Source of the DNA: an uncultured bacterium
GTDB lineage: Bacteria; Actinomycetota; Acidimicrobiia; Spongiisociales; UBA5794
Length of the DNA: 64,000 nt
Direction of reading: 5' to 3'
Assembly (NCBI GenBank): GCA_963801165.1
Contig: CAWDDT010000006.1
Coordinates: 320,001-384,000, forward strand
Shown here: in pieces, positions 6,046 through 21,765 of the stretch
Position numbering within the stretch: position 1 is the first letter of the stretch
How the letters are laid out: every line of letters begins with the position of its first letter
Translations under genes and position numbers: made by a program
Notes under the pieces: generated by a model
What the model saw: the letters and a program-made list of their open reading frames with translations, nothing else
What the model was told of the DNA's origin: nothing
The model's database searches: none

Positions 6046-7431
6046 TTAGGCCTTCACCCGCTCGATCGAGCGGTCCGCACGCAGCACAACGAGCCGTGCC
6101 GCCGCTGACGGCGTGAAGCGCTCGCTGGCAAAGACAACCGCCTCTCGTTTCGTCGCAAATACTCGCTTCGAGATCGCCTTCCCGCGCACTCGATGCACCT
6201 GCCAGCCGCCCGCTGCTCTCGGCTCGACTGTGTCGGTGAGCGACTTCGTGTCGGGGAATGCGTATAGACCCGGCCGACGCGGCAACCATTCGAGATGAGC
6301 GCGATCTGCCGGGATACCCGGCGTAGCTGCGGCGTCGGGTGTCAGCGGCGACGTGGCCCAGAATGTTGTGAACGGCTGCGTCCAGTCGACGGCCTCTGCG
6401 TACGACATCACGGTGCTCCGAGCCGAGTCGATGGCAGCGTCTGTCGACTGACGCCCCAGGAAGTGGAGCCCCTGACGTAGCATGCGCAGCCCCACCGTGA
6501 GCAGCGGTGGACCGAGATTGGCGGCCCGTACCAGTGAGTCGGCAGCCGCCTCCAGGTCACGTTGTTGCGGGTCCCAGAGCATCTGCAAACCGTGGATGAT
6601 GGCGGCATCGGGCAGATAGCTTTTCCAGTTCTCGAAATTGCCGGGCCAGTAATGGAGCCGCCCGTACTCCCCTGCCTTGAGCAGGTAATAGCCTCCGATG
6701 GCCGCGCCCGTAGGATCCGCGAGCTTCTCGAACAACAGACGCTCCGCGGCAACCATTCGACCGGTCTCGACCTCGCCCCGGCTCAGATACCGAAGCACCG
6801 AATCAACCTGGCGGTCGTGTTTGGACGCGAGGTCCGAGGCAATCGATACGCTCACGGCCATTCCTCGCCCGTCCGTAGCCATAGGGGCGACCGGCCGGAT
6901 AGCGATCGAGGCTAGCGATTCAGCCGGGAGGACAGAGACACGTGGCGTGGCCGCTGGTGATCCGATAAGCACGTAGTTCATGCCGCGCGGCAGGAGGTCT
7001 TTGAAGGTGATCTTCCAGGAGATCAGGTCCGACTCGCTGTAGCTGGCGGGCCACGGCTGCGGGTTCGCCCCCCATAGCTGAACCCAGGGTGTCTCTGCTG
7101 CGCTCCGGCGGTGGCTCCGGTACCGTTCCGGGGCGGGCGCTTGCCCGGCGGCCGTCTCCCAACTCAGCCACTCGTGCTGCGACGGCGGCGCTGGGATGTC
7201 GACCTCCCCTTCGCTCGAGGCAGCCACCTGGATCAGACGTCCCCCCGGGAATCTGGCCCGCACCACGTGTCGCTCGCCGGTTACCTCGACACCGGTCACA
7301 TCGCCTACCTGTAGCGACCTTTCTATGAGCAGCTCACCCGAGTCCGCATCGATGATCTCGGCAGTCAGGAGAGCCCCGTCGAGCCGGTTGCCGCCCGTGG
7401 TGTTGATGACCCTGATGTCGAGATGAGTCAT
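6046..7431 (-). CDS. Caspase-associated hypothetical protein with a C-terminal DUF2188-like domain
   Basis: ATGA overlap with the caspase stop. Core LLFEKLADPTGAAIGGYYLL...WPGNFENWKSYLPDAAIIHG. Tail GGWQVHR...FATKREAV...LVVLRADRSI resembles DUF2188. Confidence 0.7.
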   Translation of the reverse strand: MTHLDIRVINTTGGNRLDGALLTAEIIDADSGELLIERSLQVGDVTGVEVTGERHVVRARFPGGRLIQVAASSEGEVDIPAPPSQHEWLSWETAAGQAPAPERYRSHRRSAAETPWVQLWGANPQPWPASYSESDLISWKITFKDLLPRGMNYVLIGSPAATPRVSVLPAESLASIAIRPVAPMATDGRGMAVSVSIASDLASKHDRQVDSVLRYLSRGEVETGRMVAAERLLFEKLADPTGAAIGGYYLLKAGEYGRLHYWPGNFENWKSYLPDAAIIHGLQMLWDPQQRDLEAAADSLVRAANLGPPLLTVGLRMLRQGLHFLGRQSTDAAIDSARSTVMSYAEAVDWTQPFTTFWATSPLTPDAAATPGIPADRAHLEWLPRRPGLYAFPDTKSLTDTVEPRAAGGWQVHRVRGKAISKRVFATKREAVVFASERFTPSAAARLVVLRADRSIERVKA

Positions 7432-8558
7432 TCCTCGAGCTCCCATGCGATCTCGGGGTGAGGTGGCTGCGGATTCACCGTCGCTTCATAGGGACGCCAT
7501 CGCCGTGAGAACGTCGCCCGGCCTTGGTACTCCTTGACGGGGAGGCGTATGTGCCACGGTTCAGCACCGTCGAGTCGATGCGCGACGGGTTGACCGGCCC
7601 CCGCCTCGAAGATCGACAGCTCGACACCATCGGTCTCGTGGCCCGGGACGAGCATGATCGTCACAGGGATATCACCAGGACTGTCGGTGCAGTGAATGAG
7701 CGATTCGCGCCGTCCTCCTTCCGGCTGCGAGGTCTGTCGCGGGGCGCCCTCGTGCGCCTGCGCGTATGACATCGCCGCTTCCACACCTTCGGCGAGGTGG
7801 GAGGTGGAGACCCACCACGCACCGCGTCTCGGCCGGCATCCCATCCCCCGGAACGACGCAAGGATCGCTTGGGTAAACGCAGCCACACCCGCTACCTGTC
7901 CATAGGCCGGGTCGGTGGGCAACGTGGCGTAGAGACCGAAGGAATCAACGGCCAGATTCTGGTCAGCCAGCCAATCCGGGATCACCTCCCCGAGTTCGTT
8001 GCCGACCCGAAGAGATTCGAGGGAGACCTGACGACAGGCATCCGCAAAGAAACACTGGATCTTCGCCCGACAAGATGTAGCCATCGCCACGCGGGAGTCG
8101 TCGAAGTTGATTGCATTAGCGAATGGCTGACTGTCCGGGTCGCCGAAATCGGCGACGAGTAGTCCCAGGTGACCTCTCATCAGCCCGTGGCCGCAGAAGT
8201 AGAACATGGCGACGTTGTCTTCATTGCGGTTGCAGCGATCCACCCATTGCCGGAAAGCCGGCCGCAACTCTTCCATGGTTGGTCGTCCGATCCGTTTTGC
8301 CCGGGCCGAGCCGGGGGGTCGGAATCTGCGCGTCGGCGAGACGAGTAAGTCCAGGCTGCCCAGCGGTGCCTCGGAGTTCGTTAGCTCATCCCGGAGAAAG
8401 GTGGCAAACGCCAGTGCGGATTCGGGTGGAGAACTGAGTTTGGCAGTCAGGTTGAGGCCGGCCACGCGAGGGTCATCGATGTAGTCGTATTCGCCGACGC
8501 CGACAACGAGCGCGTGGGTGCGGGGCTCGGCCGATCCGTCGTCGTACAGCGCAGTCAT
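7428..8558 (-). CDS. Caspase-family (peptidase C14) protein
   Basis: HALVVGVGEY, FYFCGHG (His), FFADACR (Cys), FTQAIL. ATGA overlaps on both sides. Confidence 0.9.
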   Translation of the reverse strand: MTALYDDGSAEPRTHALVVGVGEYDYIDDPRVAGLNLTAKLSSPPESALAFATFLRDELTNSEAPLGSLDLLVSPTRRFRPPGSARAKRIGRPTMEELRPAFRQWVDRCNRNEDNVAMFYFCGHGLMRGHLGLLVADFGDPDSQPFANAINFDDSRVAMATSCRAKIQCFFADACRQVSLESLRVGNELGEVIPDWLADQNLAVDSFGLYATLPTDPAYGQVAGVAAFTQAILASFRGMGCRPRRGAWWVSTSHLAEGVEAAMSYAQAHEGAPRQTSQPEGGRRESLIHCTDSPGDIPVTIMLVPGHETDGVELSIFEAGAGQPVAHRLDGAEPWHIRLPVKEYQGRATFSRRWRPYEATVNPQPPHPEIAWELEE

Positions 8559-9643
8559 GCGAGATCGATCACGATGCCGGGGCTCGCGGCTTCGGGGTAG
8601 CTAACCGTGTAGCGATGCCGTTCCATGAGGTGCGGATCATCCCAGACGTCGTTGAATCGAGTCCGGTAGTTGAACAGGAGCTGGGGTCCCGATTCAGGGC
8701 GTTGTCCGCATGCGATCACCCGCGCCACGGCTTCTCTGTCCGGATGCCGGTAGTACGCGCCATTGCTGGAGAAGATGAACCGAGGACACGACACTTGCTC
8801 GACCATTCTTCTCGACACATTCTTCTTACTGCCGTGATGCGGCAGTTTGAAGGCGTCGAGCTCGAGCCGCTCCGATTCTCGCAGCGCCAACAGCCGGCCG
8901 AGAGAGTCCTCTAGAACGTCGGCGTGAGCATCACCGGCGAGCAGAACCGCGACCTCCTGACCATTGTCGGTGTATTCGGCGAGGAGGGCGATGGTCGTGC
9001 CGTTAGCGACGCTGCGATCCGGTGCGAAGGGTGCATCCTTCAATGCATCGAAGTCGAACGAGCCGAACGTCTCCCATCCCGGTAGCTCCTCCGGCACCGA
9101 CGCCGGCACCTCGGGGTCCAAGCCGGCTTCACGCACCACCCTGCTCCACCCCGGCCGGAGGGCGGCGAGCTGCGCCCGGCCCGGGGAGAGCACCGTCATA
9201 CGGAGCCCTCCCGCCAGTTTGCGCGACACCGGTGCCCCTAGGTCCGCGACGGCGATCGCCGGACCGAAGGGTCGGCTCCCGTTCCAGGTTTGGTTGCGAT
9301 CGAGGATTGCCTTGGTGAGTCGTTCGCCTGCGATCGGCCCGAACACCTCGTGCTCTTCCGACAGATGCGGGAATCCGTTGAACCAGATGTCGTCGATTGC
9401 CAGGTTGGTGTCGTTCTCGAGCAAGGTGACGATCCCATCGATGTGGTCCGCATCTATATGGGTCACCACAACGAGATCCACCCGGCGATCGCCCACGGGT
9501 AGGTCCTCGAGGCATCGGAAGACGCTCTCGCTCGTATCTGACGTACCGCCGTCGACGAGGATTCGATGGGGAGCGGCCGGATCGCCGTAGACGATCCAAA
9601 GCGCGTCACCCTGACTCGCCGGCAGCGCGCTGAGACGGAACAC
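8555..9643 (-). CDS. MBL-fold metallo-hydrolase (ComEC/Rec2-like, Avs1a-like)
   Basis: QGDALWI, ILVDGG, VTHIDADHIDG, LLAGDA, KLPHHGS, SSNG...HPD. Confidence 0.9.
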   Translation of the reverse strand: MFRLSALPASQGDALWIVYGDPAAPHRILVDGGTSDTSESVFRCLEDLPVGDRRVDLVVVTHIDADHIDGIVTLLENDTNLAIDDIWFNGFPHLSEEHEVFGPIAGERLTKAILDRNQTWNGSRPFGPAIAVADLGAPVSRKLAGGLRMTVLSPGRAQLAALRPGWSRVVREAGLDPEVPASVPEELPGWETFGSFDFDALKDAPFAPDRSVANGTTIALLAEYTDNGQEVAVLLAGDAHADVLEDSLGRLLALRESERLELDAFKLPHHGSKKNVSRRMVEQVSCPRFIFSSNGAYYRHPDREAVARVIACGQRPESGPQLLFNYRTRFNDVWDDPHLMERHRYTVSYPEAASPGIVIDLA

Positions 9644-9764: not shown

Positions 9765-9812
9765 TCGTCGGCTGACCGGGTTTGAACCCGCGACCTCTTG
9801 ACCCCCAGTCAA
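9765..9812 (-). repeat. Displaced, partly degenerate 3' half of tRNA-Pro (att junction)
   Basis: The 23-bp GCGACCTCTTGACCCCCAGTCAA (9790-9812) is identical to 18734-18756. The T-arm/acceptor part carries three substitutions and a 1-nt deletion. Confidence 0.9.
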
Positions 9813-10294: not shown

Positions 10295-11014
10295 TCAGGC
10301 TGGATTGCAGGGGTCGTCCCCGGCATTCATGATGGGCGCATCCTCGTTCAGCTGCTGCAGCTGAACGAGCGCGCGGACGCCGGGCCCTTCTGGAGCGTTT
10401 TCGGTTGAGAGCCGGATCCAGAGACTGGCGTCGTCGAGGGGTAGCGCGAGGTTGGGCTGTACGTGAGTGAGACGCCCGGTGGCGCCTGTCGTGACGTTTG
10501 AGAGCGACCCGAGGGGTACCTGATCCTGCCCGCTGCAGGTACCGAGTTCGATCGCGACTTGCGTAGCGGGAGCAGAATCTCGGACGGTGAGCAGCAACCA
10601 GACTACCGGATCGATTGCGGCTGGTTCGTCAACGACTACGAACGTAAGTGTGGCCGACAAGCCGTTCGCCGCCGGCAGGTCGTAGGTTGCAGCGGCCGTT
10701 GGGCCGGAGAACTGGCGGGCATCCGACGCCAGCTCCTCATTCCGAGCCTTCATCGCTTCCAGAGCGGTTTCAACACGTTCGAGCTCCGCCTGCGCTACGT
10801 CCCTGTCCGCCTCGACAGAAGAGACAGCTGCTCGGAGCTGAGCGATCTCTTGACTCGCCAGCTCCGGTCCGTCCGCTAAGGCTCCACGAGCCCCGTTCGA
10901 CCCGGCCGACTGGAGCACCCACCCGGCCGTGAGGCCGAGAGCGAAGACGAGCGCAAACAATCCAAGCCGAGAAATCCACCGCATAGCGCGCGGCCGTCCT
11001 GAGCTGCCGTTCAT
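10295..11014 (-). CDS. Exported/membrane-anchored hypothetical protein with a coiled coil and a two-Cys C-terminal domain
   Basis: ATG 11014 overlaps the upstream stop (ATGA). Hydrophobic segment LGLFALVFALGLTAGWVL, heptad region, then GTCS and DPC. Confidence 0.65.
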   Translation of the reverse strand: MNGSSGRPRAMRWISRLGLFALVFALGLTAGWVLQSAGSNGARGALADGPELASQEIAQLRAAVSSVEADRDVAQAELERVETALEAMKARNEELASDARQFSGPTAAATYDLPAANGLSATLTFVVVDEPAAIDPVVWLLLTVRDSAPATQVAIELGTCSGQDQVPLGSLSNVTTGATGRLTHVQPNLALPLDDASLWIRLSTENAPEGPGVRALVQLQQLNEDAPIMNAGDDPCNPA

Positions 11015-11649
11015 TGCGGAGTGGCTCTTGTTAGCGATGCTGCAATCATGGCAGCCCCGGCAAGTCCCCCGGCGATTCGCCACGTGGCCCGCCACCATTG
11101 CGACAGCAGTTGTTCGACGGCGCGTTCCAGGCCGGGATGACCTGACGGAGCGACAGCTCCCAACCAGAATGCGAACGCTCGGCCCGCGCCGAAAGCGAGC
11201 CCTGCTTCCAGGCCGTGGCCGTTGAGAGCAGCGACGATCAAGGCAACCCACAGCAAGGACGACGAGACGACCGTCCACCAGCCCAGGCCCAAGAGAAACC
11301 CAAAGAGAGGGACCCCGACAATGCGACGCTGAGCGGTATGCCGCCAAACCTGGTGACGTCGCGGGGAGAACACGCGCGGGCGACCTGTCAATGACGTCGC
11401 GAGAACGAACCCACCCAGCAATGTGAGGGCAACGCGATAGGTGGAGCCGTCAGTAGCCACGTCCGGGACCAGCCTGTCCAGGGTCGCGAAGGAGGCAACG
11501 GCGCCGGTCATTGCGCCGAGCGTGAAGAGAACCGATCGAGTGATTCGCGTACCTGGTCGACCGACCTGACCGCCGCAGATGGCGTTGATCCCTCAGCCGG
11601 TCGCCGTCATAGCTACCGCTGCCAACAGAGCAAGTACCACGCTCGCCAC
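11011..11649 (-). CDS. MauF/CcdA-like membrane redox protein, candidate selenoprotein (in-frame TGA at codon 19)
   Basis: GGGAGG RBS plus GTG 11649: MASVVLALLAAVAMTATG*GINAICGGQ...FTLGAMTGA is in frame with ORF 11011-11511. Later motifs RRHQV, FGFLLGLGWWTVVSS and FGAGRA are MauF-like. Confidence 0.65.
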
Positions 11650-11671
11650 GGAACCTCCCTTCATCAAACCG

Positions 11672-12127
11672 CTAGCAGGCACTTAGAACCCTGGCGCAGA
11701 TGCACCTCACGCCGGCGTCGTTGTCACAATCGCAGCAGATGGTGGTCCGACACGGTGATTGGGTTGTACAGACCCAGCAGCTCATGCCCGAGCCCCAGCT
11801 GTTGGGCTTCGTGCAAGGCGAGTTGCAGGAACTCCCTGAGCAACTGCAGCCATTGGTGCTGCATCCGGTGCCACAGCAAGGCGATGGCCCACAATACTGG
11901 GGACAGCATCCACCTGTCGGTGAACCACAGCTCGCCGCAGTGGCTGACGCGGGGCGGAACAGCGCGCCGTGCGCAAGTGTGTAGGCAAGTCCGTAGAAGG
12001 CTGCATCCGCGGCGCGCCTGAGGAATCGTCGCCGATCCATCGCACCCGCCACACGGGTCGCGGCCGCCACCGCCTTAGGGTGGTCTTCATGCCCGGGATG
12101 TGGCGATGATCGTCCATGGTGTCGCAT
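11672..12127 (-). CDS. Tat-exported cysteine-rich peptide (20 Cys in ~87-aa predicted mature part)
   Basis: DRRRFLR twin-arginine motif, h-region, ASATA cleavage site, then SCGSPTGGCCPQYC...SCWVC...CCDC...RCIC...SAC. ATG 12127 follows the upstream stop by 1 nt. Confidence 0.8.
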   Translation of the reverse strand: MRHHGRSSPHPGHEDHPKAVAAATRVAGAMDRRRFLRRAADAAFYGLAYTLAHGALFRPASATAASCGSPTGGCCPQYCGPSPCCGTGCSTNGCSCSGSSCNSPCTKPNSWGSGMSCWVCTTQSPCRTTICCDCDNDAGVRCICARVLSAC

Positions 12128-12128
12128 T

Positions 12129-12725
12129 TCAGCCCCCGTCCTCGCCACGACCCTGAAGGACTCGGTTCGTCGGTCGTGGCGAAGGTGACACCGCTGACCA
12201 AGCCAGAGCCTCGAGATCCTCTATTGAGTTGACCAACGACTTGGCAATGACCGTTCCCGTTTCGTCGATCACGTGTACGAACGGCGTGCCCCGGATGTCA
12301 AGGGAATCGAACACCTCCGCATCAACGACACCGGCAACAAGCTTCGTGGCCGGGAGTTCGCCGGTCACAGTGTCGTCGTCTTGGCGCTGCAACCACACGA
12401 ACTCGAGACTCTCGTTCCATCCTGCAATGAAGGAGTCCAGATCAGGAAGGAGGGCCTGGCATATTGGGCAATCTGGCAGTGAGAATATCGCGATGACGGA
12501 CCGCTTGTTTGCCGACCCGTTCCATTCGAGTCGATGCTCGCGCCCGTTGCTAGTGAAACTGATCGGTGGGGCCTTGGTTCCAATCGCGATCCCTCCGAGG
12601 TTCACCCGTCCTCGGCCGCCGAGATACACGAGACCAATCTGCCGGTACAGCAATAGAAGCGCCACACTCGAGAAGACGGCAATGAACCACAGCAGGCCAT
12701 ACGAGAGCCAGAACAGATCGCTCAT
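12129..12725 (-). CDS. MauD-like membrane-anchored thioredoxin-fold protein
   Basis: N-terminal TM followed by LLYRQIG, IGTKAPP, FSLPDCPICQAL (CxxC), and GTPFVHVID. Confidence 0.8.
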   Translation of the reverse strand: MSDLFWLSYGLLWFIAVFSSVALLLLYRQIGLVYLGGRGRVNLGGIAIGTKAPPISFTSNGREHRLEWNGSANKRSVIAIFSLPDCPICQALLPDLDSFIAGWNESLEFVWLQRQDDDTVTGELPATKLVAGVVDAEVFDSLDIRGTPFVHVIDETGTVIAKSLVNSIEDLEALAWSAVSPSPRPTNRVLQGRGEDGG

Positions 12726-13252
12726 GGCGCCGACCTCAACTGGAGGCCGAGCTCTTCGAGCACGTTAGGTACGGCAACGACCAGGACAGAACCGAGCAGG
12801 GCCAGCATGTAGAGGAGCGCCCCTTCCGCCGCGCCCAGCCTGCCGAACATCATCGGTGACGGCATTGCCCAGATCACACCGGCCCCGGCGATCAACACGG
12901 CGTTTCGAACGAGAGCAAGGTTGCCCGTTCTAAGGTGCCCTATGCCGCAGCCGCAGGCCGAGGCTACCCCCGCCCGAACATTGGCCGCGATGGCCGCCGT
13001 GAACCCAGCGAGCGTGCCGCCAGCGAGCACGGCCCCAGCTACTCCAGGGATCGACGGCATCAAGAGAAAGGTGGCAGCCAACAGCTCCAGAAAGGGAATC
13101 CCATATGAGACTATCTTGCGAAAACGCGAACGACGCATCAGCCAGACATATCCGGAGAGGGCACGAACAAATTCGTCGCGTGACCGCAGCTTCGCGATGA
13201 AGGAGAGAAGAAAGACGAACCCAAGTGTGAGTCGGATCCATTCGACGTACAC
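12722..13252 (-). CDS. MauE/DoxX-family membrane protein
   Basis: VFLLSFIAKL...F...GY...ELLAA...FTAAI...CGCG...LVRN. AAGGAGG RBS before GTG 13252. Confidence 0.85.
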   Translation of the reverse strand: MYVEWIRLTLGFVFLLSFIAKLRSRDEFVRALSGYVWLMRRSRFRKIVSYGIPFLELLAATFLLMPSIPGVAGAVLAGGTLAGFTAAIAANVRAGVASACGCGIGHLRTGNLALVRNAVLIAGAGVIWAMPSPMMFGRLGAAEGALLYMLALLGSVLVVAVPNVLEELGLQLRSAP

Positions 13253-13378
13253 AATCTCCCTCCTTCTGGACAACGATACACACGCATAGCCCAGAATGGG
13301 GGAGCCGCGCAAGAAATCCCTCCTGATCCGGTGGTCGAAGCGCCGTGCCCGGGTCGCAAAGCGTCGTCCTTCCGCATG

Positions 13379-16120
13379 TCATCGGGCGGTGCTACGGGTG
13401 CTGTCTCGGTTTCGGGTGCGTTCGGCGTTGTGGCGTTGTCTGGCGGCTTCGATGCTCTGGTTGATCTTCTGACAGATCTCGTGGTCGTCGTCGGAGCCGT
13501 GAGCTGGCTTGTCGACGTCGTGGTCGGGTGGGTGCGTCCCGGCTTGCAGCTCGACTCCGAGCGAGGAGGTCAACACCCTGCCGGCTTCGAGGCGTGTTCG
13601 TTGGGCGATGGCGGGTTGGTCGATCCAGTGCCGGACCGCGGCTTGGGTAAGCACGTCGGCTGCTGTCTCGCCGTCGTTGGTGACGACGTAGGCGTGGTTG
13701 GAGGTTCGGCCCCGTGTCAGCGGCGTGTAGAGGCCGCGGCTGTCGGTGGGGCCGTCGACGAGGAGGAGCCCGGTGTCGACGGTGCGGCCTTGGGTGGCGT
13801 GGCTCGTCTGCGCGTAGCCCAGCTCGAGGTCCTCGGCGGCGTAGTCGGCGGGTAGACGAACCCTGCCAGCCCTACCGGCGACGGTGACGGCGCCGTCGGG
13901 GTGGATGGCTTCTATGGTCCAGTGGTCCCGGTTCTTCACCATGACGCCGCGGTCGGTGCGTAGGGTGCGCTGGTTGTGGCGGGTGACGACTTCGTCGCCG
14001 ACAAGCAGCCGCTGGCGGCCGAGGCCGAGGGCAGGCCCGTTCGGGTCGAGCTCACCGGTGGCAATGCGTCGTTGTTGGGTTAGCTGGTTGAGACAGTGGA
14101 CGGTGTGGTTGGTGTTGGCCATCAACGCTACCGACTCGCCCCGCCGCCGCGCCTCATGCCAGGCGTCGACGATGGCTGTCTCCATGGCGTTGGGGGTGCC
14201 GTCGTGGAGGCGACCGTGACGCTCATACTCCGCCAAGACGGAGGCATCTCCAGTACGAATTCGCCGGGTGGCGTCGGCTTCCCATTGGTGGGTGAAGCGG
14301 TGGATGTGGTCGAGTTCGACAGCTCCGTGGGTGTCGATGAGGCGGGCGAACATGCCGCCCCGACCGACGGCGGAGAACTGGCGAGGGTCACCCACCATCA
14401 CCACCCGCCATCGTTCCACGTCGGCGAGACAGGTGAGGGCGGCGAGTTTTGGTGTTGAGACGGTGCCGGCCTCATCGACGATCACCGTCGAGCCCCGCGG
14501 GAGATCGTATGGCGGTTGTGGTGGTCGGTCGGGCCGGGCGTGTTCGTAGAGGAGCTTGTCGAGGGTGTCGGCTGGCATGGTGGTTTCTGTGGCGAGCACC
14601 TCGGCGGCTGCTGCGGTGGGTGCCACCCCGAACACCGTCTGACCGCGGTCTTGTAGGTAGGTGACGGCTGGGGTGAGGGCGGTGGTCTTGCCGGATCCGG
14701 CGGGTCCGACGATCAGCTCCAACGGTGCCCCACCGGATGCCGCCCGGCACGCTTCGGCTTGACCCGCGCTCAGACCCTGCGTGTCTAGGCCCCGGGGTCG
14801 GGTGTTGATGATGTCGGCGAAGCGGCGCTGGCGTTGAGCCCACTCCACGATCCGTTCCTCCTCCTCGAGAATGGCGTGGGTGGTGAGGGCCCGGTCGAAG
14901 GCAGCTTCGCTGATCGGGCGCCCATCACGGCGCAACACAGCACCAGACGGCACTGGTGGGGACAGATCGACACAGCGGTTAGCGGCGACGTGGTTGGCGA
15001 GGTCCTGCAAGAAGCTGCTCAGACGATCCGGTTCGACCGTGATACTGGTGGGGACCTGGGCGGCGAGCTCACGGACCAGTTCGGCGGGACGCCACGTCGA
15101 CTGCCGCTCTGCCAACGCCCCTAACGCCGCCTCCACCATTCCGGCCATTGTCGCCTGGTCGATGCCGGTCGCCTCGCGGACACGACCCACCACGGCGGCG
15201 ACGAGGTGGTGTGGTTCGTAGCTGAGGGCTTGCAACCTGCTGCGCCACCCGGCGTGCAACTCGCCGGCTGTGTGACCGTGCGTTTTGGCGGGGCGACTAT
15301 CCAGCACAGCTTCTCGTTCCAGGCGCCACCGTTCCCGTGGTGTCGGCTCCCGCCCGAGGTCGCTACGGAACCGGTCCAGTTTCTCGTCGACACGCGTCTC
15401 GATGTCGCGGCTGCGTTGGGAGAACTCGGCCAGCACCCCCGCATCGACACCGACCATCTCAGAGATCCCATTCACTGGAGGCTGCCAGCGGACTCCGAGG
15501 CGGCGGGTCAGCTCGGCCCGCAACCCGGCGTGATACAACCCCGACAGGGTCCGCTGATCCATCTTCAACGTGCGGGCATCGAGCGCCAACCACCGTCCAT
15601 CCGGAGAGCGGACTCGGTTGGCGATCACCGCATGGGTATGCAGCTGCGGGTCGAGGCGACGGCTGGTGTGCTGACGGAATACCCCCACCACGATTCCTTC
15701 GGCGTCGACACACACCACATGACCCCGCCGCCGCAACCGAGTGTGCGCCTGCGACTCGATCCAGTCGAGCACTGCGTCGACGGCCCGGTCATGCGCCTCC
15801 GTCACCTGCGCTCGCAGTTGTTGGTCGCCGATGGCGAACAGCACCGACACCGACTTCGGCGCCGAAAACGTCGCATCGAACCCCCGCACCGAACCGTCGC
15901 CGAAGCGGCGGCCCAACCGCTCACCGCTCATCGGAGCCAGTCCGGCCATCACCGCCAAGAACGCTTCATCATCGACTTGCCCTCCGAGACCGAGCATCCG
16001 GGCGCCGTGTCCGAACCAGCGACCCGGCGGCTCACCGCTGTCGAGGTAGTACGACGGGAGCTGCTCGGTGTAGTAGCGACCAGCCTCGGTGCCCTTCAAC
16101 GTCGTCACCCGCACCGTCAC
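13379..16120 (-). CDS. MOB-F (TrwC-like) relaxase-helicase
   Basis: N-terminal RYY...SYY, DATFSAPKSVS, HTSRRLDPQLHTH (3H motif), GPAGSGKT, DEAG, GYAQTSHATQG. Confidence 0.95.
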   Translation of the reverse strand: MTVRVTTLKGTEAGRYYTEQLPSYYLDSGEPPGRWFGHGARMLGLGGQVDDEAFLAVMAGLAPMSGERLGRRFGDGSVRGFDATFSAPKSVSVLFAIGDQQLRAQVTEAHDRAVDAVLDWIESQAHTRLRRRGHVVCVDAEGIVVGVFRQHTSRRLDPQLHTHAVIANRVRSPDGRWLALDARTLKMDQRTLSGLYHAGLRAELTRRLGVRWQPPVNGISEMVGVDAGVLAEFSQRSRDIETRVDEKLDRFRSDLGREPTPRERWRLEREAVLDSRPAKTHGHTAGELHAGWRSRLQALSYEPHHLVAAVVGRVREATGIDQATMAGMVEAALGALAERQSTWRPAELVRELAAQVPTSITVEPDRLSSFLQDLANHVAANRCVDLSPPVPSGAVLRRDGRPISEAAFDRALTTHAILEEEERIVEWAQRQRRFADIINTRPRGLDTQGLSAGQAEACRAASGGAPLELIVGPAGSGKTTALTPAVTYLQDRGQTVFGVAPTAAAAEVLATETTMPADTLDKLLYEHARPDRPPQPPYDLPRGSTVIVDEAGTVSTPKLAALTCLADVERWRVVMVGDPRQFSAVGRGGMFARLIDTHGAVELDHIHRFTHQWEADATRRIRTGDASVLAEYERHGRLHDGTPNAMETAIVDAWHEARRRGESVALMANTNHTVHCLNQLTQQRRIATGELDPNGPALGLGRQRLLVGDEVVTRHNQRTLRTDRGVMVKNRDHWTIEAIHPDGAVTVAGRAGRVRLPADYAAEDLELGYAQTSHATQGRTVDTGLLLVDGPTDSRGLYTPLTRGRTSNHAYVVTNDGETAADVLTQAAVRHWIDQPAIAQRTRLEAGRVLTSSLGVELQAGTHPPDHDVDKPAHGSDDDHEICQKINQSIEAARQRHNAERTRNRDSTRSTAR

Positions 16121-17469: not shown

Positions 17470-18642
17470 GTGACTGAGAAGAGGCGACCCAGAGGTACGG
17501 GCTCAATTCGCGAGCGTGGCGAGCGCTACCAAGCCATCTACTCATACATTGACGGAAGCGGGAAGCGTCGTCGTCGCTCCAGGACCTTCGACACTAAAAC
17601 GAGGGCGCGGAAGTGGCTGAACGATCGTCTCGCCGATGTGGGACACGGCCGAATCGCTGATCCGCGCGTAGTCTCCGTCGGTGAGTACCTTCAGAACTGG
17701 CTCGGATCCCTCGGCATGCAGCAGCTCGAAGCTGCAACCGTGTCCTGGTATCGGTCGGCGGTGGTCCGGCACATCGTCCCGGAGCTTGGCACGGTCAAAC
17801 TCTCGAAGCTGTCGGCGGTGCAGATCGAATCGTTCCTCGCTGACAAAGCCAAGTCAGGTCGCCTTGACGGTGCCGGCGGTCTCGGCCCTGCGTCGGTGCG
17901 GCGACTACAGGTGACATTGCACAAGGCGCTCGACGCTGCGGTACGCAAGGGGATGCTCGCCACTAACCCGGCCGACCTCGCGGATAAGGTGAAGGTCCCG
18001 CCGCGCGATGTAACGGAGACGGTGTGGAGTCCGGCGATGATGACGACGTTCCTCTCAGCGACGGCGTCTGACCGACTTCACCCGATCTGGCAGACAGCCT
18101 GCATGACAGGATTGAGGCGGTCTGAGCTTGCTGGCCTGCAATGGCCCGACATCGACCTCGACGGCGGACTGCTGAGCGTGAAGCGGGCTCGAACTCAGGT
18201 GGACGGCCAGCCGGTGGTGAAAGGCCCGAAGTCGGCGGCGTCACGTCGGATCGTGGATCTTGATTCGGAGACGGTCATCGTCCTGAGACGGTGGAAGGTC
18301 GCACAACTTGAGGAACGTCTACGGGCTGGCACAGCCTGGCAGCCCGGAGACTGGGTGTTCACCAATCAGATTGGGGCACCGTGGCGACCCGACAGGCTCA
18401 CACGAGCGTTTGTGGACCGGGCGAGCGCCCTGGGCCTTCCAGCGACCGACGTCAAGGGTCTGAGACACGCTCACGCCACAGCCTTGCTCCGGGCCGGTGT
18501 CCATCCCAAGGTCGTGCAAGAAAGGCTCGGCCACTCGTCGATCAGCGTAACAATGGACATTTACTCGTCGGTGTTGCCTGGAATGCAACGTGAAGCGGTC
18601 GAGAAGCTGGCGTTGCTGATGGACTCGTTAGGCGCCCCGTAG
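17470..18642 (+). CDS. Tyrosine recombinase/integrase
   Basis: N-terminal GTGSIRER arm domain; TGLRRSEL, PKS, KGLRH, LGHSS, DIYS. Confidence 0.95.
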   Translation: MTEKRRPRGTGSIRERGERYQAIYSYIDGSGKRRRRSRTFDTKTRARKWLNDRLADVGHGRIADPRVVSVGEYLQNWLGSLGMQQLEAATVSWYRSAVVRHIVPELGTVKLSKLSAVQIESFLADKAKSGRLDGAGGLGPASVRRLQVTLHKALDAAVRKGMLATNPADLADKVKVPPRDVTETVWSPAMMTTFLSATASDRLHPIWQTACMTGLRRSELAGLQWPDIDLDGGLLSVKRARTQVDGQPVVKGPKSAASRRIVDLDSETVIVLRRWKVAQLEERLRAGTAWQPGDWVFTNQIGAPWRPDRLTRAFVDRASALGLPATDVKGLRHAHATALLRAGVHPKVVQERLGHSSISVTMDIYSSVLPGMQREAVEKLALLMDSLGAP

Positions 18643-18704: not shown

Positions 18705-18710
18705 TGCTCG

Positions 18711-18784
18711 TCGGGCTGGCCGGATTTGAACCGGCGACCTCTTGACCCCCAGTCAAGCGCGCTGCCAAGCTGCGCCACAGCCCG
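18711..18784 (-). tRNA. tRNA-Pro (GGG)
   Basis: CGGGCTG/CAGCCCG acceptor stem, CTTGA-CTGGGGG-TCAAG anticodon arm, GCCGG-TTCAAAT-CCGGC T arm. CCA is not encoded. Confidence 0.97.
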
Positions 18785-20413: not shown

Positions 20414-20719
20414 GTGACTTCAACAACTATTGAATCAATTTCACTTGAAGAGCGGGCGACGCTGCTGTCGGCACTGAGTGACCCGATCCGGTTGCGGATC
20501 ATGGACACCCTCGGTGCCGAGACATGCTGTGTCTGCACACTCCAGGAGACTATCGCCATCGCACCCAACCTCCTGTCGTACCACCTGCGGGTGTTGCGCG
20601 AGGCGGGACTGGTCGAAACCACCCGTCGGGGCCGCTGGGTCGACTACCACCTCTCCCCCACTGCGGGCACAGCCATCGCATCCGCCCTTCCGCTCCCTCT
20701 CCGGTGGGAGGAAAGATGA
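20414..20719 (+). CDS. arsR: ArsR-family metalloregulator with a CCVC motif
   Basis: ALSDPIRLRI...CCVCTL...LSYHLRVLREAGLV...GRWVDY. Start approximate. Confidence 0.85.
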   Translation: MTSTTIESISLEERATLLSALSDPIRLRIMDTLGAETCCVCTLQETIAIAPNLLSYHLRVLREAGLVETTRRGRWVDYHLSPTAGTAIASALPLPLRWEER

Positions 20720-21765
20720 CCAGCGCCACCCTCACCGCCAACCGGCCCCGCTTGAAGACGTGGCTCGGGCTCGGCGCCGCCGCGGTCGGCTGGATCATCG
20801 CCTACCGGGTCAACGCCCCGATGTGGCGGTGGCTGCTCACCCACGTCGCACATCTCGACCTGGAAGGCAAGACCGGCTCTGCCGCCGAGTTCTTCCTCGC
20901 CGACACCGTAAAGATCGCCCTGCTGCTCGGCGGCATCATCTTCGCCGTCACCGTGCTCCGCTCCTTCATGAGCGTTGAGCGCACCCGGGCACTGCTCGGG
21001 GGGCGCCGTGAAGGGGTAGGCAACGTCGCCGCTGCCGGCCTCGGTGTGGTCACCCCGTTCTGCTCGTGTTCGGCGGTTCCCGGGTTCATCGGGTTTGTCG
21101 CCGCCGGGGTACCCCTCGGCATCACCATGAGCTTTCTCATTGCCAGCCCTATGGTCAACGAGATCGCCATCGTGCTTCTCTACGGGCTGTTCGGGTGGCG
21201 GATCGCCGCGCTCTACGTCACAGCCGGTCTCCTCGTTGCAATCGTCGCCGGGTGGGTCATAGGTCGGATGCATCTCGAGCACTGGGTCGAGCCATTCGTA
21301 TTCGAGACCACGCTGCGGGGCAAGCCCGTCGACCTTGCCGGTTCGCTGTCCTGGAACGACCGATTCACCATCGGGCGGGAAGAGGTCAGGACCATCATCC
21401 GCAAGATCTGGCCCTACCTGCTCGTCGGTATTGGCATCGGCGCCGTCGTGCACGGATGGGTGCCCCAGGACTTCTTCGTCCGCTACGCCGGACCGGACAA
21501 TCCGCTGGCCGTTCCGGTCGCCGTCGGGCTCGGCGTCCCCCTCTACTCCAACGCCGCCGGGGTGCTGCCGCTCGTCGAGGCGCTCCACTCCAAAGGGCTC
21601 GCCATGGGCACCGTCCTCGCCTTCATGATGTCGGTCGTCGCCCTGTCGCTCCCCGAGATGGTGCTGCTCCGCAGGGTGCTCAAGCCCCGCCTTCTCGGCG
21701 TGTTCGTCGGCGTCGTCGCCTTCGGAATCCTCTGTGTCGGCTTTCTATTCAATCTCATTCTGTAA
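20716..21765 (+). CDS. ArsP-like (DUF318) permease
   Basis: TPFCSCSAVP, FLIASPMVNE, GVPLYSNAAG, ALSLPEM. ATGA overlap with arsR. Confidence 0.85.
   Translation: MTSATLTANRPRLKTWLGLGAAAVGWIIAYRVNAPMWRWLLTHVAHLDLEGKTGSAAEFFLADTVKIALLLGGIIFAVTVLRSFMSVERTRALLGGRREGVGNVAAAGLGVVTPFCSCSAVPGFIGFVAAGVPLGITMSFLIASPMVNEIAIVLLYGLFGWRIAALYVTAGLLVAIVAGWVIGRMHLEHWVEPFVFETTLRGKPVDLAGSLSWNDRFTIGREEVRTIIRKIWPYLLVGIGIGAVVHGWVPQDFFVRYAGPDNPLAVPVAVGLGVPLYSNAAGVLPLVEALHSKGLAMGTVLAFMMSVVALSLPEMVLLRRVLKPRLLGVFVGVVAFGILCVGFLFNLIL

Follow-up and report, generated by a model that had tools for sequence, protein, structure and literature searches.

A probable selenocysteine in a putatively CcdA-like membrane protein encoded on a mobile element of an Acidimicrobiia bacterium

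We analyzed a 64,000-nucleotide stretch of DNA from an uncultured bacterium of the class Acidimicrobiia (hereafter the window; positions 320001-384000 of contig C6 of the host genome, G000), in which a gene on the minus strand (11011..11649) contains an in-frame TGA codon. We consider it very likely that this gene encodes an integral-membrane selenoprotein of 212 amino acids in which UGA codon 19 is read as selenocysteine (Sec), and that the protein is a divergent member of a family related to DsbD_2/CcdA; its part in the redox relay described below is a proposal. The Sec reading is well supported at the level of the family and probable for the TGA of the window's copy. Judging from sequence comparison, the family appears to be large, centred on the Acidimicrobiia and distantly related to DsbD_2/CcdA.

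The in-frame UGA and its conservation

A GGGAGG ribosome-binding site (11654..11659, minus strand), read directly from the sequence, is separated by a 4-nt spacer from a GTG codon (11649-11647), at which translation would start; the upstream gene stops at 11672-11674, leaving an intergenic gap of 22 nt. The 18 codons that precede the TGA (11593..11595, minus strand) encode a hydrophobic segment (VASVVLALLAAVAMTATG). Past the TGA the frame continues as GINAICGG... and stays open for 193 more codons, up to a TGA stop (11013-11011) that overlaps the ATG of the next gene in the sequence ATGA; the assignment of all 212 codons to one gene draws on sequence and homology. The open reading frame program called only the last 166 amino acids, from the ATG at 11511, which is codon 47 and lies inside a predicted helix (residues 32-60) of the AlphaFold2 (AF2) model. 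The original prediction had described the ribosome-binding site, the GTG start, the hydrophobic helix with the TGA behind it, the uninterrupted frame to 11011 and the truncated call, and the sequence agrees with it on each of these points. A sequencing error at the TGA, which had been named as a possibility, found no support in the reads: contigs from two soil runs (X1, spanning 11125-11720, and X2, spanning 11462-11612) cross the TGA without differences. Because a single soil study produced the four runs used for this check, and the source sample may be among them, the reads do not amount to independent support.

An exhaustive phmmer search gave 16 matches at E <= 1e-3, and several of these homologues had gene calls starting one or two residues past the region of the TGA and Cys25. 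The alignment column of the TGA holds TGA in all four metagenome loci, three of which are distinct (31-33% identity to the query); in each, it stands within the motif [ST]-G-U-G-x-N and is preceded by a start codon and a conserved hydrophobic N-terminus of 23 amino acids. When 401 genomes of the host's class were searched with a profile that included these metagenome N-termini, 53 matches were recovered from 52 genomes, with TGA at the column in 47 (among them the window, a frameshifted copy, L080, and a locus of the unpublished genome G418), Cys in five and a contig end in one. Overall, 51 of 57 matches (the window, the four metagenome loci and 52 others in 51 class genomes) have TGA, five have Cys and one is cut by the contig end; for the class matches other than the window, TGA recurs in 46 of 52. 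The sequence R-S-x-W-S-P-U-G-[EV]-S-M-L-x-S-I-x-P-L-G-E-R, or a close variant, is found in 44 TGA-forms, and in the canonical TGA-forms a helix precedes the motif with a start codon 20-30 codons upstream. The column thus holds TGA or Cys in an S-P-[U/C]-G motif with a conserved helix upstream, as was predicted for homologues of a selenoprotein. Because the TGA, the upstream helix and a GGUC-loop hairpin (see below) recur in the four distant metagenome homologues, and the TGA column in most of the class matches, we regard the signal as more than chance.

Two loci with the TGA differ from the others. In L080 (contig C14 of G378), WSP-TGA-GESML and the C-terminal part are in different frames, and the locus is either a frameshifted pseudogene or the product of a sequencing error. 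L060 (contig C10 of G136) is a divergent paralogue with the motif GSP-U-SSNS and adjoins a PaaA/PaaC gene. A word-indexed homology search with the window's protein retrieved only its own 166-amino-acid call, and a single-protein six-frame search of 60 relatives gave marginal matches only. No match was obtained from plasmids by tblastn, no relative was found by a tighter alignment against genome contigs, and a search of 14 other genomes from the host's genus did not find the gene. A third profile scan of contigs returned only L030, a partial, divergent Gaiellales locus in which the Sec helix is not recognisable and which is uninformative.

Patterns of substitution show that both flanks of the UGA evolve as translated sequence. 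Over the 44 canonical Sec-forms, the 15 codons upstream of the UGA have a ratio of nonsynonymous to synonymous polymorphism (pN/pS) of 0.48, versus 2.1 for the same stretch taken one base out of frame. Downstream, the 15 codons that begin with the annotated AUG have a pN/pS of 0.44, and the three codons that lie between this AUG and the UGA have 0.08. The Gly codon in this gap is GGA in 16 sequences, GGG in 11, GGT in 11 and GGC in six; because the variation is synonymous only and all four Gly codons are used, no Shine-Dalgarno sequence is conserved there. In the window's subfamily, the upstream 18 codons have pN/pS values of 0.35-0.48.

Selenocysteine machinery and candidate SECIS hairpins

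The host genome encodes SelA (358 bits), SelB adjoining it (320 bits) and a tRNA-Sec with the anticodon UCA (72.7 bits). The active-site codon of its SelD is itself a TGA (SHGAG-U-ACK; contig C9, L010:1531), and an FdhA-type enzyme has a TGA within SCNRT-U-HAPSV (contig C4, L084:1717). All four of selA, selB, selC and selD, the genes by which the prediction of a selenoprotein was to be judged, are thus found in this genome. Across the class, SelA is over the cut-off in 276 of the 401 genomes, a tally that includes the unpublished genomes G252, G292, G313 and G418, and a comparison of two tables places it in 47 of the 52 family-positive genomes. No SelA match is listed for the family-positive genomes G160, G173, G184, G388 and G390. 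In these five SelB is under the cut-off, a clear tRNA-Sec was not found (at most 47.8 bits, versus 72.7 bits in the host) and SelD is present in G160 only.

Cys-forms with the motif WSP-C-G occur in five class genomes (G184, G390, G173, G388 and G038), and four of the five (those of G173, G184, G388 and G390) come from genomes that yielded no SelA, SelB, SelD or clear tRNA-Sec. The partner redoxin described below is present beside the Cys-form of G038. Full-length Cys-forms with the N-terminal helix are also found in the database (P0103, P0106, P0116, P0124, P0133, P0135 and P0137). The Cys-forms of the four genomes without detected Sec machinery (L061, L062, L071 and L077) have longer open frames, of about 250-340 amino acids, and no redoxin or Cys-rich neighbours, and may represent a subfamily of their own with a different role.

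Two hairpins follow the UGA in canonical sequences, hairpin 1 (GAUGCU[NNNN]AGCAUC) at nt 12-27 and hairpin 2 (CCCGCUC[GGN]GAGCGGG) at nt 30-46, both counted from the U of the UGA. Among the canonical loci L032-L083, the proximal hairpin has FdhA-like spacing and variable loops, and the distal hairpin has a G-rich loop at about 33 nt. Because MAFFT misaligned the divergent RNA segments, covariation was counted on the 44 canonical sequences, leaving out the window, L026-L028, L060 and L074. In this alignment 93.2% of cells are paired, versus 31-47% when the partners are slid, and covarying pairs are found at 30-46 (CG in 30, UA in six, UG in three and GU in one) and 36-40 (CG in 39 and GC in three). 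The covariation score of 0.074 compares with 0.034 for shuffles, and none of 500 shuffles reached it, a comparison that is inflated by the relatedness of the sequences. The Ser codon that closes hairpin 1 is AGC in 44 of 44 Sec-forms and in none of the three Cys-forms with Ser at that position; host usage of this codon is 26%. Compared with synonymous recodings of the same sequences, all 44 Sec-forms fold better (mean z -1.05), with p <= 0.05 in only four of them, and the mean z for the Cys-forms is -0.28. In the family as a whole, the RNA past the UGA thus has the form of a bacterial SECIS (selenocysteine insertion sequence), a hairpin whose apical loop opens with G.

In the window's copy, the candidate selenocysteine insertion sequence (SECIS) is the hairpin CAGGUC[GGUC]GACCAGG (11552..11568, minus strand), which the original prediction had flagged for a G-initiated loop starting 31 nt past the UGA; the hairpin and its loop are there as described. 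The hairpin is conserved in L026-L028, and its GGUC-type loop is common to the window, L026, L027, L028, L060 and the SECIS of the host FdhA-type gene (GUCGUC[GGUCU]GGCGAC). L027 and L028 differ by a compensatory change, G-C to A-U, in the stem. The distance from the UGA to the loop is 30-33 nt in all four members of the window's subfamily and also in canonical hairpin 2. Across the genome, 1016 of 118,849 TGA trinucleotides (0.85%) have a GGUC-loop hairpin 14-38 nt downstream. A weak proximal hairpin, CGCC[AUCUGC]GGCG (11571..11584, minus strand), has the position of canonical hairpin 1 and no statistical support in the window's copy, and Rfam returned no SECIS or other family near the site. 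The genuine FdhA SECIS of the host has a z of only -0.24, so thermodynamic stability is a poor discriminator of SECIS elements here. The predicted SECIS gains from a loop that is conserved in the subfamily and of the type found in FdhA, and loses by the thermodynamic weakness of the window's own copy. The hairpin of L060, CUCGUC[GGUCU]GGCGAG, is nearly identical to the host FdhA SECIS.

Protein identity, partner genes and rival explanations

CcdA has two conserved, membrane-embedded Cys residues, one in transmembrane helix (TM) 1 and one in TM4. The window's protein resembles a CcdA-type membrane redox protein in its predicted features. As in CcdA, DsbD-beta and DsbD_2 proteins, a small polytopic membrane protein has an S-P-C/U-G-type residue at the end of its first hydrophobic helix, and, as for CcdA and DsbD_2, the gene adjoins that of a thioredoxin-fold CxxC partner. 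Unlike CcdA with its two Cys, the window's family has one conserved redox column, usually Sec and otherwise Cys; none of the other invariant or near-invariant columns holds a Cys, and the motif equivalent to TM4, FGxxLGxG, has no Cys. The redox motif is S-P-U-G in the family and a degenerate T-G-U-G in the window's copy. PF13386 (DsbD_2) was reached at E <= 0.01 by nine of 32 family members, with L037 (27.2 bits) and L046 (25.9 bits) exceeding the cut-off of 24.9, and the match begins at the Sec column. Because the window's protein does not reach the Pfam DsbD_2 model, its link to CcdA is only transitive, via these relatives, and we do not file it as a DsbD_2 member since its score stays below the Pfam threshold and the second cysteine is absent. 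The prediction that the TGA occupies the redox-Cys position of a CcdA/DsbD-like protein is thus upheld by the TGA or Cys in the S-P-[U/C]-G motif of homologues and not by the score of the window's own protein; the label MauF gained no support from NCBIfam (no match at E <= 1).

A confident AF2 model that includes the N-terminal helix (pLDDT 86.1, pTM 0.83) places helices at residues 2-15 and 18-26, around Sec19. Cys25 had been put forward as a resolving partner of Sec19. We rejected this candidate, as Cys25 is not conserved: the residue is Phe in the other three subfamily members and is absent from the canonical motif.

The gene is the fourth in an operon of five on the minus strand. The first encodes a MauE-family membrane protein (12722..13312; PF07291, 80 bits), and the second a membrane-anchored, MauD-like redoxin with the motif CPIC (12129..12725), for which the matches to Redoxin (24 bits) and to TIGR02661 MauD (46 bits) are both under the cut-off. 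The third (11672..12148) encodes a Cys-rich protein with a twin-arginine (Tat) signal, RRRFLRR, which is the presumed substrate; it is homologous to a neighbour of L027 (E 2e-12) and matches neither the MauA Pfam model nor any other. The last gene (10295..11014), coupled to the selenoprotein gene through the ATGA overlap, encodes a membrane-anchored coiled-coil protein with no family over the cut-off. The first four operon genes are repeated in L027 and L028, and canonical loci have a membrane-anchored CxxC thioredoxin-like protein together with a very Cys-rich Tat-signal protein of about 205 amino acids. In a census of partners at 56 loci, with flanks of only about 1.5 kb on each side, we found a CxxC redoxin (TrxP profile) at 44, a MauD-like redoxin at four, Cys-rich protein type B at 29 and type A at four, MauE at nine and no partner of these kinds at eight. 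Taken together, 48 of the 56 loci have a redoxin partner alongside and 33 have a Tat/Cys-rich partner.

In the mau system, where mauE, mauD and mauF are maturation genes of methylamine dehydrogenase, the MauA light chain undergoes disulfide maturation. The window's operon, in which MauE and a MauD-like redoxin are encoded beside a secreted Cys-rich Tat-signal protein, follows the same logic as MauA maturation. It differs from the mau system in that the MauD match is under the cut-off, the Cys-rich protein is not MauA by Pfam, and a dehydrogenase heavy chain and amicyanin were not seen in the operon. In our reading, SelB and tRNA-Sec of the host decode UGA19, with the GGUC-loop hairpin as the probable guide. 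By analogy with mau, the Sec would then form transient selenenylsulfide bonds with the adjacent CxxC redoxin (MauD-like) and MauE. Such a relay could transfer reducing or oxidising equivalents, either across the membrane or along it, and may serve disulfide maturation of the co-encoded, Tat-exported Cys-rich protein. We also offer, tentatively and with somewhat less than even confidence, a wider view that joins these observations: an abundant, unrecognised family of membrane selenoproteins (52 of 401 class genomes and more than 1000 database clusters) in which a single Sec in a CcdA-like scaffold replaces the two-Cys relay, which together with MauE and a CxxC redoxin would form a selenium-dependent folding machine for Tat-exported Cys-rich proteins, and which would move as a module among Sec-competent hosts on small integrative elements.

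Several results weigh against a Sec-dependent relay protein of the CcdA kind. We infer the relay itself only from gene neighbourhood and from the analogy with mau. The window's protein reaches no Pfam model, with no DsbD_2 match at E <= 1 (and none at E <= 0.1 in a genome-wide scan), and neither it nor five relatives matched any NCBIfam model at E <= 1, including the TsoB model NF045694 and those of the MerT-like, SO_0444 and YeeE/YedE families. A profile search of the PDB gave no match; the highest-probability Foldseek row, CcdA 5VKV, is not significant (E 0.21, probability 0.69, TM 0.34), and the best VIA-align Z, about 5.5 for RnfA/NqrE, is in the noise range. In the RNA, the window segment has z values of -0.01 and +0.24 against dinucleotide shuffles and +1.19 against synonymous recodings, the stem has 4 bp followed by a mismatch and 1-2 bp, and the loop lies 30-33 nt after the UGA in the subfamily versus 18 nt in host FdhA, the window's own loop being 12 nt farther away. 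G160, a genome that is 95% complete, has a TGA-form and SelD, but SelA, SelB and tRNA-Sec were not detected; this may be either an assembly gap or a real exception. In addition, the Cys-forms of genomes without Sec machinery have no partner genes nearby, and for this reason those four may be paralogues rather than orthologues.

One alternative retains the Sec and dispenses with the thiol-disulfide relay, so that the Sec is a metal or chalcogen ligand (for Cu, Hg or species of selenium or sulfur) in a permease or chaperone, as in other DsbD_2/TauE-SafE-like proteins. A ligand would suit the single conserved redox residue, where CcdA has two Cys, and the Met at +4 in the U-G-E-S-M of canonical members, but this Met is missing in the window's subfamily. 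Relatives are publicly named 'sulfite exporter TauE/SafE', among other names, and the MerT-like and SO_0444 transporter families are already entered as membrane selenoproteins in Table 1 of a recent review (PMC13188914). However, Pfam and NCBIfam scans found no metal-resistance genes in the operon, and the redoxin and Cys-rich Tat partners counted in the census indicate protein thiol chemistry. We regard a ligand role as unlikely, at roughly one chance in five, and prefer the relay.

Less probable again is that the window's copy is dead or not recoded, with a transferred SECIS so weak or so distant that translation ends at the UGA and leaves an 18-amino-acid peptide. The short, thermodynamically undistinguished hairpin, the arrival of the gene on a mobile element and the frameshift in its relative L080 would all fit such a copy, yet the frame remains open for 193 codons beyond the UGA, with translational coupling to the next gene, the loop belongs to the type found in the host's own FdhA, its spacing is kept throughout the subfamily and in canonical hairpin 2, and the host is Sec-competent. 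We give very little credence to the remaining explanation, which is the one implied by public annotation: a hydrophobic leader peptide that ends at the UGA and a main protein that restarts downstream. The canonical sequence directly past the UGA, GGNGAG-UCG-AUG, does resemble a Shine-Dalgarno sequence with a start codon, and that Met is the annotated start in nearly all of the 120 database proteins listed. Against this, the Cys-forms run continuously through the same motif, the gap codons have the low pN/pS and the mixed Gly codons that argue against a conserved Shine-Dalgarno sequence, and the first start available in the window's subfamily is deep in the protein, at codon 47 in the window and about 45 codons on in L027.

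Annotation of the family and the mobile element

A database search for relatives gave 1019 matches at E <= 1e-10. Among the 120 of these that are listed, TGA-forms are publicly annotated as proteins of 194-197 amino acids beginning with MLASI, nearly all start four residues past the Sec, and the names given are 'hypothetical', 'TauE/SafE' and 'MFS permease'. Because public annotation truncates the family in this way, database entries lack its redox residue and the first transmembrane helix. Many gene models would be corrected if the Sec were recognised, and the prokaryotic selenoproteome would gain a membrane-embedded family. The natural pairing of Sec- and Cys-forms bears on why selenium is preferred in an extracytoplasmic thiol pathway, and the module of MauE, redoxin and Cys-rich Tat protein would gain a testable fourth component.

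Table 1 of the review cited above, dated May 2026, contains 119 selenoprotein families and subfamilies, and no DsbD_2/CcdA-like membrane protein with a single Sec is among these entries. The nearest entries in that table are TsoB (a rhodanese/DsbD fusion with UxxxxU), MerT-like, the SO_0444 transporter and YeeE/YedE. They are alike in having Sec in proteins listed as membrane transport or DsbD-like; the window's family differs, as far as the table entries describe the others, in its single U within SP-U-G and in its partners. A term search of the BSepDB article (PMC13326102) found no occurrence of DsbD, 'cytochrome c' or 'membrane'. A literature search found nothing that joins PF13386 with selenocysteine, and for MauE with selenocysteine there was no relevant title among the matches listed. 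A prior description of the family elsewhere is possible.

The original prediction placed the gene on a mobile element, which is borne out by an integrase, a relaxase and att-like repeats at a tRNA gene. The tRNA-Pro (GGG) gene (18710..18784, minus strand) is the integration site and contains the proximal att repeat (18714-18756), and the distal att-like direct repeat (9770..9812) is a copy of its 3' part, 93% identical over 43 nt. These 43-nt repeats bracket a tyrosine integrase (17470..18642, plus strand; PF00589, 75 bits), a TrwC-type relaxase/helicase (13379..16120, minus strand; PF08751, 272 bits; AAA_30, 177 bits) and the five-gene operon. The operon is the cargo of an integrative mobilizable element of about 9 kb at tRNA-Pro. 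Being carried on a mobile element, it should function only where the host is Sec-competent, and a recipient of such a selenoprotein operon would need a compatible SECIS as well as Sec competence.

Outside the element, the window encodes an ArsP_1 permease (20524-21762, plus strand; 242 bits) with no in-frame stop; an 'SO_0444 family Cu/Zn efflux transporter' is among the selenoproteins listed by the 2026 review (PMC13188914). Just beyond the distal att repeat, three co-oriented genes on the minus strand (6046-9643) encode a 466-amino-acid protein, a caspase-like Peptidase_C14 protein (7431-8558, 35 bits) and an MBL-fold protein (8558-9643). This trio could be a defence-like module.

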